From a virus (lineage: Duplodnaviria; Heunggongvirae; Uroviricota; Caudoviricetes): 48,828 nt of DNA. The position numbers were made by a program, and so were the translations under genes. Positions within the stretch are counted from its first letter, which is position 1; each line of letters opens with the position of its first letter. Location: IMG/VR virus record IMGVR_UViG_3300045988_154803; one strand, given 5' to 3'. Under the pieces are notes generated by a model that did no database searches, was not told where the DNA came from, and worked only from the letters and a program-made list of their open reading frames with translations. This document shows, piece after piece, positions 1,201-48,828 of this stretch.

Positions 1201-1410
1201 TTACTTGGGGCAGTTGATTTCCCATGCCCTGTTATGAGCCAGAATATCTTTCTTTGTCTGGCGGTCCATAACATCGATATCGTGATCAGTCAGGTAGATG
1301 GGCTTTACCCAATCACAGGCGGTATCAACCACCACCGGGACGCTTCCACGACTCCCGCAGCTCGCGATCAACATCGTCATCAGCCATATGGTTAACACTC
1401 TGCTGTACAT
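1201..1410 (-). CDS. o-spanin (Rz1-like outer-membrane lipoprotein); true start probably internal (MTMLIASCG)
   Basis: Lipobox LIASC followed by short Pro-rich periplasmic segment; overlaps 3' end of the i-spanin in another frame. Confidence 0.55.
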   Translation of the reverse strand: MYSRVLTIWLMTMLIASCGSRGSVPVVVDTACDWVKPIYLTDHDIDVMDRQTKKDILAHNRAWEINCPK

Positions 1411-1603
1411 TCCCCACCTCTTTTGTCACTTCTATACGCCGCTCCGCAGTGGCTTTTACGGCGGCTGCATTCTCATTAATGCGCTGCTTTTCAGCTTCAT
1501 CTTCGGCCTTTTCTCGCCCCTTCATACGACCAAAACCAAATGCGCCGAATGCAACCAATATAATGGTGCCGATAAATGACAAAACGGCTTTCAAACCAGT
1601 CAT
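1325..1603 (-). CDS. i-spanin (Rz-like, N-terminal TM helix plus charged coiled-coil segment)
   Basis: 92 aa; hydrophobic N-terminus IGTIILVAFGAFGF then K/E-rich helix; directly downstream of endolysin. Confidence 0.5.
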   Translation of the reverse strand: MTGLKAVLSFIGTIILVAFGAFGFGRMKGREKAEDEAEKQRINENAAAVKATAERRIEVTKEVGNVQQSVNHMADDDVDRELRESWKRPGGG

Positions 1604-2819: not shown

Positions 2820-2852
2820 TAAAAAAAAAGCCCCGCCGAAAAAGGCAGGGCT
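2820..2852 (-). terminator. Intrinsic terminator (hairpin plus U9 on minus strand) immediately upstream of holin RBS
   Basis: Minus-strand reading gccctgcc-ttttt-cggcggggc followed by nine T; only ~13 nt before holin start. Confidence 0.65.
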
Positions 2853-3193
2853 TCATAAAGCAACAAATTACGCGGTAATCGCTTAACGCAGTTTTACTAC
2901 GTTAAATGAAACACTACACCCAGTTACCATCTAAAACAAGGTTTTCTCATAAAAAAACCTTCAAATCGTGGTTAATCGATCAATAAAAAAACAATACTCA
3001 ACTTTTTGCCAAACGAACATCCCGGCCAGGACTTCCATAATATTCGCCGATATGCCACTGCTTAAGTTGAGTAATCTTCTCCAACTTAACTCCCATAGAG
3101 TCCAGTTTCTGCCATGTTTTCGGTTGTATGTGCTTCATTATCCGCTCTGAATATCTGAATACTGCTCGTAATCGCATGGCTTCTCACTACAGC

Positions 3194-3637
3194 TTATATA
3201 TGTTCACGACTGGACTTCCAGAATATCCACGCCAGATCAACATTCGGGTCCTGGTAATTCATCCCTTCGTTGGCACGAAGCAATAATGTTTCATGGTCTT
3301 TATCACCCGCATGAAACCTGACAAGTGCTTCGAACTTTTCGCGACCATCATCCGGCACTACCGGCTCTGGTTGGATAGTGACGTTGGCAAAGGCAGCACG
3401 CAAACCGGCCTTAATTTCCTCTACTTCATCAGCGCCTAGCGATGAATCTGACAATGCGTGATGGAATGCGTAAGCCATGTCGTCGTTTACTGCAACCGGC
3501 TCGACTTCCAGCGCTGCCAGAGCAATTCGTGCCAGTTCTTCCGCTTCTTCTGCTGGCAGTACAACGTTGCTACTAGGTCCGTATGTTTCGCGCCACTGCT
3601 TGATTGTCAGTAGTCGCTCTTTGGTAATAGTAATCAT
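3194..3637 (-). CDS. Hypothetical acidic protein
   Basis: 147-aa ORF in early operon; no motif recognised. Confidence 0.45.
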   Translation of the reverse strand: MITITKERLLTIKQWRETYGPSSNVVLPAEEAEELARIALAALEVEPVAVNDDMAYAFHHALSDSSLGADEVEEIKAGLRAAFANVTIQPEPVVPDDGREKFEALVRFHAGDKDHETLLLRANEGMNYQDPNVDLAWIFWKSSREHI

Positions 3638-12129: not shown

Positions 12130-12153
12130 ATAAAAAAGCCCCCGAAGGGGCCT
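12130..12153. terminator. Hairpin terminator (U-run on minus strand, A-run on plus)
   Basis: gcccccgaaggggc stem-loop flanked by A6 on plus strand. Confidence 0.5.
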
Positions 12154-12725
12154 AATCGCTACTTGCTGCTAATGTTTATCGTCACATTCAGAGCGTTATC
12201 AGTAATCTTCCAACCCTCCCCATGTGGCGTAAACAAAGCTCCAGTAACAACGATAAAAATACACATACAGTATTTTTTCATTGTATGGCCCTTACAGGCC
12301 GTTTCACGGCATCCCCACCGACGAAAACAACGCGAGAGCAAGCACGGCTGCTTGTGCTTGCATGTACGGCAACGGAGAATCCTCCCCTAAAGTCGGTGCC
12401 CGGGTGCGAATCGGCGGGAAGGTCCACAGGTATTTTACGATTATTTTAAGATTAGTAATAGGAAAGAAATTAAACGAAAAAACTCGTTTATTTTCACAAA
12501 ATCAGTAACCTACCCACAATCTGTGAGTTTGCAGGCACAACAAGAACCACAATTTTTTGAAGCATAATAGTGGACTATTATTACCTTTTGGGTAAAATTA
12601 ACTTGCTGCTTGTGCTTGCGTGGTTGTTTATACAACAACGTAATGCTGAAAGGACCGCGAATCCGATCAGCACGAAAGAACCGTCCTCAATAGGGCGGTT
12701 TTTTTGTTTCTGCCTACCAATAAAC

Positions 12726-46695: not shown

Positions 46696-46766
46696 TGAGG
46701 CAGCTTTGGTTTGCGCATTATCGCAGCCCCTGGTAAGCACAAGAGCTGCTGTAATGCTAAAAAAAC

Positions 46767-46788
46767 AAAACCACCCGCAGGTGGTTTT
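46767..46788. terminator. Bidirectional intrinsic terminator
   Basis: aaaccacc-cgca-ggtggttt with T-runs on both strands. Confidence 0.6.
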
Positions 46789-46816
46789 ATAAATAAATAG
46801 CAAACAGGTATCTGCA

Positions 46817-47260
46817 CTAATCAGATAAACCAAACTTCTTCTTTGCCAATGACTTGAGAAGTTCTACACCAACATCCTTCATAACAGCCAATGGCTCATT
46901 GCTAATTTCTTTTAGTCTAGCGAAAACATCTTTGCTCTCTAGTGCACAGGCAAAATCCTGTCCCTCTGTAGTCAATCTAATATCTACATCAACAGTCCTC
47001 ATTCCTGCCAAAAAATTAACATAGCCAAGACGCAGAGGATCACGCGTTTCCATCTTCATATTGCTGATAAAACCTTGCTCAATCAATTGCATATAATGAA
47101 ACATGCCCTTTTCTGAGGCTATATCAAACCCCGCGTCTCTTAGTTGATTTACTGTTATGAACGTGCTTTCTGAATCCAAAAACACAGTCAGCATCTTTTT
47201 TAGATAATCTAGATCGGTGCGCATTTTACCCTCCTTAAATGGAACGCAAATGTTACACAA
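46817..47260 (-). CDS. Hypothetical protein
   Basis: 147-aa ORF; probable start at internal MRTDLDYL. Confidence 0.4.
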   Translation of the reverse strand: MCNICVPFKEGKMRTDLDYLKKMLTVFLDSESTFITVNQLRDAGFDIASEKGMFHYMQLIEQGFISNMKMETRDPLRLGYVNFLAGMRTVDVDIRLTTEGQDFACALESKDVFARLKEISNEPLAVMKDVGVELLKSLAKKKFGLSD

Positions 47261-47311
47261 CCTTTAAAAAAAGACACATTGTTTTATTTATGCCTCATTT
47301 TAATCGACCAA

Positions 47312-47464
47312 TTACTGCCTAAATTTATCAATAAATAATTGCTCCCGCTTACGCCGAAAAGCTCTCTGCGCCACTAAGATGCGCCACAGGACACCAGCGA
47401 TAACCACCAGCGAGATACAAAAACACACGGCCACAACCATCAGAAAAATGCCAACACCATTCAT
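47312..47464 (-). CDS. Small hydrophobic peptide (50 aa; TM helix plus basic tail)
   Basis: Hand-translated MNGVGIFLMVVAVCFCISLVVIAGVLWRILVAQRAFRRKREQLFIDKFRQ; ATGA overlap with upstream ORF; below ORF-track cutoff. Confidence 0.3.
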   Translation of the reverse strand: MNGVGIFLMVVAVCFCISLVVIAGVLWRILVAQRAFRRKREQLFIDKFRQ

Positions 47465-47667
47465 GAAACTATCCATTCTTCAATGAATATCTCCAGTAAT
47501 GTCAAGAGATACGCCGTCCCCAGCGCGGTTCCTACCGATATAGCTAAGACAAACCTCAAAGATAACGAGGTGTCTTTCGCTTTTCTCCAGACGTAAGCGC
47601 CAGCCAGAAATACCAACAAATCTCTTATTGGAAGCGGAAACCAGAACAAATCACTCGGCAAGTCCAC
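47461..47667 (-). CDS. Small membrane protein
   Basis: 68 aa, two hydrophobic segments. Confidence 0.35.
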   Translation of the reverse strand: MDLPSDLFWFPLPIRDLLVFLAGAYVWRKAKDTSLSLRFVLAISVGTALGTAYLLTLLEIFIEEWIVS

Positions 47668-47669
47668 GG

Positions 47670-48125
47670 TTATATCCTTCCATTCATTTTTATCGGATGA
47701 CCAGATAGCCTTACGCAGTTGAGCTGTAAAGCTCCGGTATCAACTAAATAATCAACTAACATGATTAGAGATTCATATTCAGCCAGACAGCTAACCTGAC
47801 GCATTCGACCGCCGTTGTTCTCCAGAATGTCGGCCACCTTTGCAGCCAACTCGCTTAGACAGGAGAACTTATTCCCATATATCGTTTTATACTCGCGCTT
47901 CTGGCATTCTTCGGCTTGCGGCTGGTTATCGAGAGCTATCATCGACCGATAACTATCAAGGAAGTCCACAATCTCATTCAGGCACTCTTTGGCTGCCTCA
48001 TCGTGACTTTTTCCGTATGCTTCATGGAGGACTTTCATCCTCATCATTGCTCCGTCACACATAATCGAAAGCGCGTAAAGCACATCACTAATCGCCATTT
48101 CTTTTTTGGTGCTTGTCGAAGGCAT
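47670..48125 (-). CDS. Hypothetical protein
   Basis: 151-aa ORF with AGGAG RBS. Confidence 0.45.
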   Translation of the reverse strand: MPSTSTKKEMAISDVLYALSIMCDGAMMRMKVLHEAYGKSHDEAAKECLNEIVDFLDSYRSMIALDNQPQAEECQKREYKTIYGNKFSCLSELAAKVADILENNGGRMRQVSCLAEYESLIMLVDYLVDTGALQLNCVRLSGHPIKMNGRI

Positions 48126-48150
48126 CCCATGTTCTCCTTTGTCTGGATGT

Positions 48151-48178
48151 AAAAAAGCCCCGGCAATTGCCGAGGCTC
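48151..48178 (-). terminator. Intrinsic terminator ~25 nt upstream of next gene start
   Basis: Minus strand gcctcggcaattgccggggc followed by T6. Confidence 0.55.
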
Positions 48179-48199
48179 GTTGTTCGTTATCGTTACGGT

Positions 48200-48400
48200 T
48201 TAATGCTCGCGTCGTCCGGCGACAACTTCGGATTTGTATTTCAGATCGCCCAGCAAGAATTGCAGTTTAAGCATCTTTGCCGCCGTGTAGTTCCCTGATT
48301 CCACAACCTCTTTCATGAGGTCATAAACGGCCGCAACATCATCAGCCAGGAACTCTTTACGTTGCTGCTCAGTCGCACGTTTGAAGGAAATACGCATCAC
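48200..48400 (-). CDS. Small hypothetical protein
   Basis: 66-aa ORF coupled to upstream gene. Confidence 0.35.
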   Translation of the reverse strand: MMRISFKRATEQQRKEFLADDVAAVYDLMKEVVESGNYTAAKMLKLQFLLGDLKYKSEVVAGRREH

Positions 48401-48666
48401 TCATCATCTCCTGCCGCACATACAACCTCACAAAAAACATCAGCGGAATGTTTCTTTTTGAATGAATGGCGCTCAAAACCGCACTCAATATCAGGCGCAA
48501 AAACATCCACCACATACGGTCTTTCAGAATGTTTGTTTTCCCAACGATAAACCGTAGTGACGTTGAAATGTTTTAACGCTTCACGGAACTCAACGCTGCC
48601 AGTCAGGTTTTTTGAGGTCAGGTATTGCAGGAGGTTTTTTACTACTTCACGGTCTTGTACTTTCAT
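48397..48666 (-). CDS. Hypothetical protein (first gene after leader cassette C)
   Basis: 89-aa ORF starting exactly at end of conserved leader. Confidence 0.45.
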   Translation of the reverse strand: MKVQDREVVKNLLQYLTSKNLTGSVEFREALKHFNVTTVYRWENKHSERPYVVDVFAPDIECGFERHSFKKKHSADVFCEVVCAAGDDE

Positions 48667-48785
48667 CGGGTTATCTCCGGTTTAACCAGGGCGGGTATCG
48701 CTCGGTTCCGGGTATAACCTTAGGAAATTTTTTCCCACCTGTAAAGTACTTTTTATATAAATATATAATTATATAATTCTATGAC
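48667..48785 (-). promoter_or_regulatory. Conserved promoter/5' leader cassette, copy C
   Basis: Near-identical to copies A and B; palindrome TATATAATTATATA at 48762-48775. Confidence 0.6.
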
Positions 48786-48828
48786 ACTTGCCAGAGAGCA
48801 TCATGCAATTGGATACCTCCATTGCACT
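48771..48828. repeat. Terminal overlap identical to 52-109
   Basis: Direct comparison. Confidence 0.9.

Follow-up and report, generated by a model that had tools for sequence, protein, structure and literature searches.

Background

The closest described counterparts of the locus treated here are the class I holins such as lambda S, the exclusion proteins Imm and Sp of phage T4 and SieA of phage P22, the hok/mok/sok system of plasmid R1, and Rst_2TM_1TM_TIR, a candidate defence system in PADLOC-DB. Class I holins of the lambda S type have three transmembrane (TM) segments, an N-out/C-in orientation and a basic tail, while Rst_2TM_1TM_TIR occurs in P2-like prophage hotspots. Here we describe two small overlapping open reading frames (ORFs), named A and B, and the gene directly upstream of them, X, in a Caudoviricetes contig of 48,828 nucleotides (nt) (IMG/VR record IMGVR_UViG_3300045988_154803). 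This whole stretch of DNA is called the window below. A and B are very probably real genes for membrane proteins, coupled to each other.

Two overlapping reading frames

The features of the pair and its upstream neighbour, with lengths in amino acids (aa), are as follows.

47461..47667, minus strand: ORF A, GTG start at 47667, TGA stop at 47463-47461, 68 aa (from the sequence and the ORF list)
47312..47476, minus strand: ORF B, TAA stop at 47314-47312, 54 aa from ATG 47476 or 50 aa from ATG 47464
47461..47476, minus strand: A/B overlap, 16 nt when taken from B's ATG 47476
47675..47681, minus strand: Shine-Dalgarno-like GGAAGGA, 7 nt upstream of A's GTG, duplex -5.5 kcal/mol
47670..48125, minus strand: gene X, 151 aa, phrog_14707, its stop 2 nt before A's GTG

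An earlier note on this DNA, which gave no strand, had described a 68-aa ORF whose stop overlaps the start of a 50-aa ORF. This arrangement is present on the minus strand, where B's downstream ATG (47464-47462) and the stop of A form the sequence ATGA and the product begins MNGVGIF. The 50-aa form of B stands as one of two, as a second in-frame ATG (47476) lies 12 nt upstream and gives a 54-aa product beginning MDSFMNGVG, the extension MDSF adding an acidic residue. The note had also called the 50-aa ORF missed, which holds for the ORF track it used. RefSeq/PGAP does call B (50 aa, ‘hypothetical protein’, e.g. WP_021542835.1) and it is A that is omitted, in every RefSeq record inspected.

The relatives of the locus include four Salmonella types that differ in gene content and spacing. 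In the plasmid of serovar Weltevreden X has 260 aa, A 67 aa and B 50 aa; X overlaps A there as ATGA, the two being separated by 2 nt in the window, A overlaps B by 13 nt, and B is followed by a terminator. Two types of Logan contig, L025 and L028, have an A of 70 or 72 aa and a B of 55 aa with overlaps of 28 nt. In plasmid CP053324 of Salmonella subsp. salamae X (251 aa) is followed directly by B (55 aa) and A is absent. An A/B overlap is thus found in every lineage with A, at 16, 13, 28 and 28 nt.

The upstream start of B is kept in most orthologues (the Escherichia alleles, L025, L028 and the salamae plasmid) and lies inside the conserved GAATGGAT, where the A codons E-W-I/M read as M-D in the B frame. 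The downstream Met is the sole start in the Weltevreden plasmid and the upstream Met the sole start in L028 and salamae; both ATGs, four codons apart, occur only in the Escherichia alleles and L025, leaving three of the four Salmonella types with a single Met. In the E. fergusonii allele L018 the stop of A comes four codons earlier and the ATGA therefore falls on the upstream B ATG. Both starts of B are plausible in the window.

The first ATG of B has a GGAG 13 nt away, and the best duplex for the second ATG is -3.1 kcal/mol; for comparison, gene X scores -8.7 and the DUF2513-like gene downstream of B -12.6 kcal/mol. In the salamae plasmid, where B directly follows the stop of X, a GGAG is located 6 nt upstream of B. 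Both starts of B in the window have weak or mis-spaced Shine-Dalgarno sites, whereas the B without A has a GGAG at 6 nt. As B in the window lacks a usable site, translational coupling to A is plausible. The translational coupling proposed earlier is therefore retained as to the overlap and the want of a well-placed site before B, yet the unit is larger than a pair. It appears to consist of three coupled genes, X-A-B, of which A is optional. A programmed -1 frameshift from A into B was considered as well, B being in the -1 frame, and was rejected, as no X XXY YYZ slippery heptamer is found in the overlap of any lineage.

Evidence that A and B are genes

The lengths of A and B are not beyond chance, as the window holds dozens of spurious ORFs of 40-78 codons. 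Conservation was therefore examined among the relatives of the element. One RefSeq relative encodes RepA, ParA, a RelE/ParE module, a lambda-like head, a P2-like contractile tail and a lysis cassette, which identifies the element as a phage-plasmid. Over 47250-48200 the window is 100% identical to E. fergusonii plasmid pRHB23-C02_4, and it matches about 70 plasmids at 94-99.9% identity, which measure 46-52 kb except for a single record of 31 kb. Matches were obtained in 69 of 5,426 complete E. coli genomes (~1.3%) and in 58 PLSDB plasmids. Among them are the 48.5-kb plasmid (NZ_CP009073) of the reference strain E. coli ATCC 25922, a plasmid of Klebsiella aerogenes and matches in E. albertii, and the nearest cultured phages are the Yersinia phages vB_YpM_39, vB_YpM_41 and vB_YpM_44. 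No papers were found on these phages or on the protein accessions. Plasmid pSLy3 was rejected as a relative, belonging to a different 114-kb group of the SSU5 type. In IMG/VR and metagenome searches A/B were found only in this same Escherichia/Salmonella phage-plasmid lineage, and no locus of the A/B type was found among the GTDB species-representative genomes.

With tblastn, B was covered over at least 80% of its length in 59 of 59 related plasmid records. A was covered over 97-100% in the 58 Escherichia-type plasmids and over 81%, at 47% identity, in the S. Weltevreden plasmid. Both frames are open in all 12 Escherichia-type metagenome loci. The Salmonella orthologues share only 34-49% amino-acid and 52-58% nucleotide identity, and both frames are open wherever A is present; across four lineages at this nucleotide distance, A and B are the only frames open throughout. 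Coding from the opposite strand was rejected, as the plus-strand ORFs 47379..47486 and 47483..47596 are not open in the orthologues. Differences in length between orthologues are in-frame (67-72 aa for A, 50-55 aa for B). Two motifs of A, LL[VM]F[LM]A[GA]A[YM]VW.K and LSLRF, and one in the tail of B, R-I-[LF]-V-[AT]-Q-[RK]-x-x-x-x-[KR]-R-E, recur across lineages, the tail motif without variation.

Within Escherichia, the variable sites of the B helix (47384-47464, minus strand) are distributed over codon positions 1, 2 and 3 as 9, 0 and 3. Hydrophobic residues thus interchange with one another while the middle base of the codon, which sets hydrophobicity, is invariant. The ratio of non-synonymous to synonymous polymorphism (pN/pS) is 1.9 for the B helix, 0.65 for X and 0.47 for A, as compared with 0.04-0.37 for neighbouring genes. 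At the protein level, change in the X-A-B cassette is thus faster than in the genes around it. A pN/pS above 1 is uninformative as proof of coding for the B helix, for which codon-position bias and deep orthologues were used instead. The ratio of the helix may reflect either relaxed or diversifying selection.

The alternative that A and B are chance open frames, one or both of which are not expressed, could draw on the many spurious ORFs of similar length, on the omission of A by PGAP and on the pN/pS of the B helix. However, chance frames would not be expected to stay open at 52-58% nucleotide identity with only in-frame indels, to be covered in all 59 plasmids, or to keep the amino-acid motifs LLVFLAGAYVW.K (A) and RI[LF]V[AT]Q...RE (B) and an invariant second codon position in the B helix. 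We consider this alternative highly improbable.

Membrane character and database comparisons

Hydropathy and charge bear out the single hydrophobic helix and basic tail that the earlier note had read in the 50-aa ORF, and the membrane-type nature it ascribed to both peptides. B has one strong TM helix at residues 8-30 (in a 19-residue hydropathy scan, summed Hessa dG -4.1 and Kyte-Doolittle mean 3.1). Its N-terminus is short and acidic, and its tail is Arg-rich, weakly amphipathic and of net charge +4 to +6. By the positive-inside rule B is predicted to be a bitopic inner-membrane protein with an N-out/C-in orientation. A has one clear TM helix at about residues 39-62 (dG ~0.4, Kyte-Doolittle 1.9-2.4) and one marginal hydrophobic segment at residues 7-27, which contains R15/D16 and has a summed dG of +4.6 to +7.9. 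Between the two hydrophobic segments is a basic loop, RKAKD, and the C-terminus is acidic. The AlphaFold2 model of A shows helices only and is weak (mean predicted local distance difference test, pLDDT, 61.8), and it was not used for a fold search.

Within Escherichia, variation is concentrated in the second helix of A and in the B helix, while the N-terminal half of A and the tail of B are near-invariant, suggesting that the constrained surfaces are those facing the cytoplasm. Neither A nor B has the lipobox Cys or the sizeable periplasmic domain of spanins, and no paralogues of either were found within the window.

Neither protein has a significant match in Pfam, PHROGs, PADLOC, NCBIfam or PDB sequences. 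A HMMER profile of A searched against 1.84 billion representatives gave 6 matches, and one of B searched against 5.8 billion proteins gave 23, all from this lineage. When A and B were joined (window, Weltevreden, L025 and L028), Pfam and PHROGs yielded non-significant matches only. All four joined sequences gave one such match, with E-values of 0.02-0.66, to the same part (about residues 113-192 of 235) of phrog_944, which is annotated as ‘membrane protein; moron, auxiliary metabolic gene and host takeover’. The best named family for B is CcmD (heme exporter protein D, TIGR03141/PF04995), at 19.0 bits for TIGR03141, below the cut-off of 25.95 bits, and at E=3.5 for the Pfam model. B and CcmD share a layout of one TM helix and, after it, a cytoplasmic helix rich in Arg and Gln; B scores below the cut-off, however, and has no ccm genes nearby. 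The resemblance is compositional and is not evidence of homology. With the PADLOC hidden Markov models, no family was hit by X, A or B at E<=1, and no match was obtained for the alternative genes found in the neighbouring positions or for the 251-aa form of X. Judged from sequence comparison, A and B appear to be new, lineage-restricted members of the familiar class of small phage membrane proteins.

Position relative to the lysis genes

The window is a circularly assembled contig in which bases 52-109 exactly repeat bases 48771-48828, a terminal overlap of 58 nt. The bases preceding this repeat are not part of the element.

1-51: Illumina Nextera/Tn5 adapter, AGATCTACAC-CTATTAAG-TCGTCGGCAGCGTCAGATGTGTATAAGAGACAG

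The adapter-bearing first 51 bases and the 58-base terminal copy indicate a circular contig with adapter contamination. With both discounted, the true length of the element is ~48.7 kb (about 48,719 bp). On this circle the following features surround the cassette.

2827-2854, minus strand: strong terminator hairpin, ~20 nt upstream of the first holin gene, with ~340 nt of non-coding DNA before the hairpin
1325-1603, minus strand: i-spanin gene, 92 aa, phrog_1026
1201-1410, minus strand: o-spanin gene, 69 aa, lipobox LIASC, phrog_1275, overlapping the i-spanin gene
48155..48178, minus strand: strong intrinsic-terminator-like hairpin, ~30 nt upstream of the X ATG, kept in the Salmonella relatives
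46817..47224, minus strand: gene downstream of B, 135 aa from ATG 47224 (the listed ORF, from TTG 47260, has 147 aa)
46765..46790, minus strand: terminator-like hairpin closing the X-A-B-DUF2513 block

In the order of transcription, the terminator at 2854..2827 is followed by two holin genes (Phage_holin_8, then Phage_holin_3_7) and those of a GH108 endolysin, the i-spanin and the o-spanin. Next come a tRNA gene, a terminator, an MT-A70 methylase gene, genes of 89 and 66 aa, the terminator at 48178..48155, then X, A, B, the DUF2513 gene, the terminator at 46790..46765, ParB/Srx and ParB-methyltransferase genes, and the terminase genes. The lysis cassette is complete, with two Pfam holins, the GH108 endolysin and both spanins. 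In the relatives examined, PGAP annotates only the 92-aa i-spanin gene of the spanin pair, as ‘hypothetical’.

The A/B pair had been described as located away from the lysis cassette, which is an artefact of the linearised circle: it lies ~2.3 kb downstream of the o-spanin gene in the same orientation as the lysis genes, with the tRNA gene, the MT-A70 methylase gene and two small genes in between.

This proximity bears on the holin/antiholin class named in the earlier note. A and B could together be a split, three-helix class I-like holin/antiholin, acting in addition to the lysis cassette's own two holins, with the dual start of B as a holin-type motif. If both of its segments span the membrane, A would be N-out/C-out with two helices, and with B (N-out/C-in, basic tail) it would complete the three-TM layout of class I. 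In the Escherichia alleles B has its two in-frame ATGs at a distance of four codons, and the pair lies in the same late unit as the lysis genes. However, A, B and the joined A+B from four lineages match no holin family of Pfam or PHROGs in searches that recognise the genome's own holins, and the lysis cassette already contains Phage_holin_8 and Phage_holin_3_7 proteins. The tRNA gene and three other genes separate the pair from the endolysin gene. Three of four Salmonella types do not keep the dual start, whose extension is acidic rather than basic, and truncation of B is tolerated in plaque-forming phages (see below). A split holin is improbable, and the holin/antiholin class of the earlier note could not be confirmed.

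Transcription and the possibility of a toxin

The terminator-studded unit resembles lambdoid late operons that rely on antitermination, by analogy of layout. The terminator ahead of the first holin gene has a lambda pR'-tR'-like arrangement, which suggests antitermination control. In the Salmonella relatives a terminator follows directly after B. No sigma-70-like promoter was found before X by a crude consensus scan, either in the window, where ~30 nt separate the hairpin from the ATG, or in the longer spacer of the Salmonella contig L025.

That spacer belongs to a gap of ~335 nt between a 64-aa gene and X (L025 512-847, L028 522-857), which measures 75 nt in the window. The gap includes ~250 nt of non-coding DNA between two strong terminators and absent from the Escherichia-type window; neither a promoter nor a significant Rfam match was found in it. 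A sub-threshold Rfam match to isrJ (22 bits, gathering threshold 37) falls on the terminator upstream of X (48154-48238, minus strand, in the window; 749-820 in L025) and is probably driven by the hairpin.

A small membrane toxin was another class proposed for the pair. B could be a Hok-like or type I-toxin-like killer peptide, its translation gated by the upstream frame as mok gates hok. In its size (50-54 aa), N-terminal TM helix and charged tail, B resembles type I toxins in general shape, its translation would depend on an upstream ORF, and the element is a plasmid needing stable inheritance. Yet B matches neither Hok/Gef nor any other toxin family in Pfam or NCBIfam. No Rfam antisense RNA (E<=1, 46700-48828) and no plus-strand promoter-like site facing A/B were found, in tests covering described RNA families and consensus promoters. 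Nor is A a disposable leader frame: it encodes a conserved membrane protein and meets B at its end rather than running along it. B is moreover embedded in a multi-gene operon, a separate RelE/ParE module is found in the relatives, and a ryfA-family locus lies at another site of the window. We regard a toxin function of B as quite improbable. The ryfA-family locus lies in a region with three RNA matches at the gathering level of Rfam.

12132-12427, minus strand: ryfA RNA, 138 bits
12799-12872, plus strand: isrK, 72 bits
12897-12984, plus strand: C4 antisense RNA, 84 bits

In Salmonella ryfA carries a small toxic peptide, and a type I-toxin-like locus may therefore be present at this other site of the element. 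C4 belongs to immunity of the P1/P7 type.

Mosaicism and the possibility of a defence module

The N-terminal ~60 aa of X are always found upstream of A/B, whereas its C-terminal part is mosaic, and X ranges from 76 to 260 aa in relatives. X contains no TIR or other effector domain, and a PDB profile search with it was empty. Its single-sequence AlphaFold2 model was unusable (pLDDT 46.7), and no fold search was made from it. On the other side of the pair, the downstream gene has a weak DUF2513 match (phrog_585) and is replaced in most relatives by genes of the phrog_1935 family.

Recombination junctions were located at the start of A (47660/47661) and inside the 3' end of B (~47337). B has at least three alternative C-termini, LFIDKFRQ, MRLD[FL]YRK and LRSGCVSFKSMR, each linked to a different downstream gene. 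Given the junction inside B, its C-termini travel with the gene that follows.

Two of the Yersinia phages, vB_YpM_41 and vB_YpM_44, were isolated as plaque formers and yet lack 1 nt at window position 47385, a deletion that truncates B just after the helix. Frameshifted B variants also occur among assembled contigs. Because B is truncated in two plaque-forming phages, A is absent from CP053324 and the cassette is mosaic, X-A-B is accessory and dispensable for plaque formation. The higher pN/pS of X, A and the B helix relative to neighbouring genes fits this status as well.

These observations also bear on the main rival to the role proposed below, a module for defence or superinfection exclusion that the plasmid-prophage expresses. 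Its cytoplasmic sensor or partner would be X, whose C-terminal domain varies, and its membrane effector or blocker would be A/B, so that incoming phage DNA is stopped at the inner membrane or the membrane collapses in abortive infection. The element is temperate, and in this variable region of it two small membrane proteins are encoded next to a cytoplasmic protein that is mosaic. X, A and the B helix evolve faster at the protein level than the genes around them. B is intact in 59 of 59 plasmid-state copies and frameshifted in two of three lytically propagated phage isolates, and the flanking terminators give a moron-like insulated layout. Against this, the crude scan gave no promoter-like site in the ~30 nt between the terminator and X nor in the longer Salmonella spacer, PADLOC gave no match at E<=1 for X, A, B or the alternative neighbours, and X has no TIR or other effector domain. 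Superinfection exclusion, the remaining class suggested for the pair, could not be confirmed; no promoter for expression in the prophage state turned up in this crude scan. We consider a defence module unlikely, while giving it more weight than a holin or a toxin.

A candidate role late in infection

We tentatively favour, among the readings considered, that A and B, together with X, could form an accessory complex of the inner membrane, expressed late and modulating envelope events as the lytic cycle ends. X-A-B would be a tightly packed, translationally coupled cassette in a late unit running toward the packaging genes; its genes lie on the same strand and in the same direction as both the lysis and packaging genes. 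Ribosomes that terminate on A would go on to translate B, so that the two proteins would be produced in a set ratio, as expected if they are parts of a single small complex. The constrained part of B would be its cytoplasmic Arg-rich juxtamembrane tail, and A would be a small helical protein with a cytoplasmic basic loop. Because a terminator lies just upstream of X and another downstream, and no promoter of its own was detected, the cassette may be expressed mainly in the lytic cycle, when late transcription reads through the terminators. It might then alter the inner membrane at a late stage of infection, perhaps adjusting the timing of lysis or blocking the entry of further phage DNA. As the lysis cassette is already complete, A/B are not a canonical part of it, and they are neither a canonical holin or spanin nor a canonical killer toxin.

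Several points weigh against this late role. The intact B of all plasmid-state copies and its disruption in two of three lytically propagated isolates could point to a role in the carrier (lysogenic) state. The topology of A is uncertain, given its marginal first segment. No antiterminator was found by family, and the candidate, a 147-aa gene (3194..3637) just upstream of the terminator before the first holin gene, has no family annotation. The promoter scan was a crude consensus match that a weak or activator-dependent promoter could escape. Finally, the specific role, in lysis timing or exclusion, is suggested by architecture and position only.

A further and rather unlikely reading would make X-A-B an undescribed lineage-specific module, in which the variable cytoplasmic X acts with a coupled A/B hetero-oligomer, a ‘split’ three-helix pore-former. 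Such a module would be either a phage-exclusion or abortive-infection effector or a lysis-timing controller of a new kind, and an arms race would be the reason why its helices evolve so fast (pN/pS up to 1.9).

Annotation systematically misses small membrane proteins, as A illustrates, which is conserved across Escherichia and Salmonella phage-plasmids yet omitted by PGAP. The lineage is widespread, given its frequency among complete E. coli genomes, and a functional result would apply broadly. If the cassette does control exclusion or lysis timing, it would represent a new lineage-restricted family of phage membrane effectors; otherwise A/B are one more ordinary accessory phage gene pair.

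Comparison with known systems

The hok/mok/sok system of plasmid R1 resembles B in encoding a ~50-aa peptide with an N-terminal TM helix and in being plasmid-borne, and its dependence on an upstream overlapping frame is probable for B as well. Unlike in that system, no antisense RNA of a described family and no Hok/Gef match were found at the locus, A is a conserved membrane protein and overlaps B by 13-28 nt, and B is embedded in an operon. The lambda S105/S107 class I holins share with A/B that they are small inner-membrane proteins, their late expression being one that A/B may have too, and share with the Escherichia alleles their closely spaced dual starts. Unlike these holins, A/B are two polypeptides with no family match, are not beside the endolysin gene and are dispensable.

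T4 Imm and Sp and P22 SieA differ from A/B, for which no homology was detected in PHROGs or Pfam and no prophage-state promoter was found. As with A/B, however, these exclusion proteins are short, with one or two helices, accessory and fast-evolving. For Rst_2TM_1TM_TIR, X-A-B has no PADLOC match at E<=1 and X no TIR domain, yet the two share a layout, in which neighbouring genes of a phage with a P2-like tail encode one protein with two TM helices, one with a single TM helix and a third protein.

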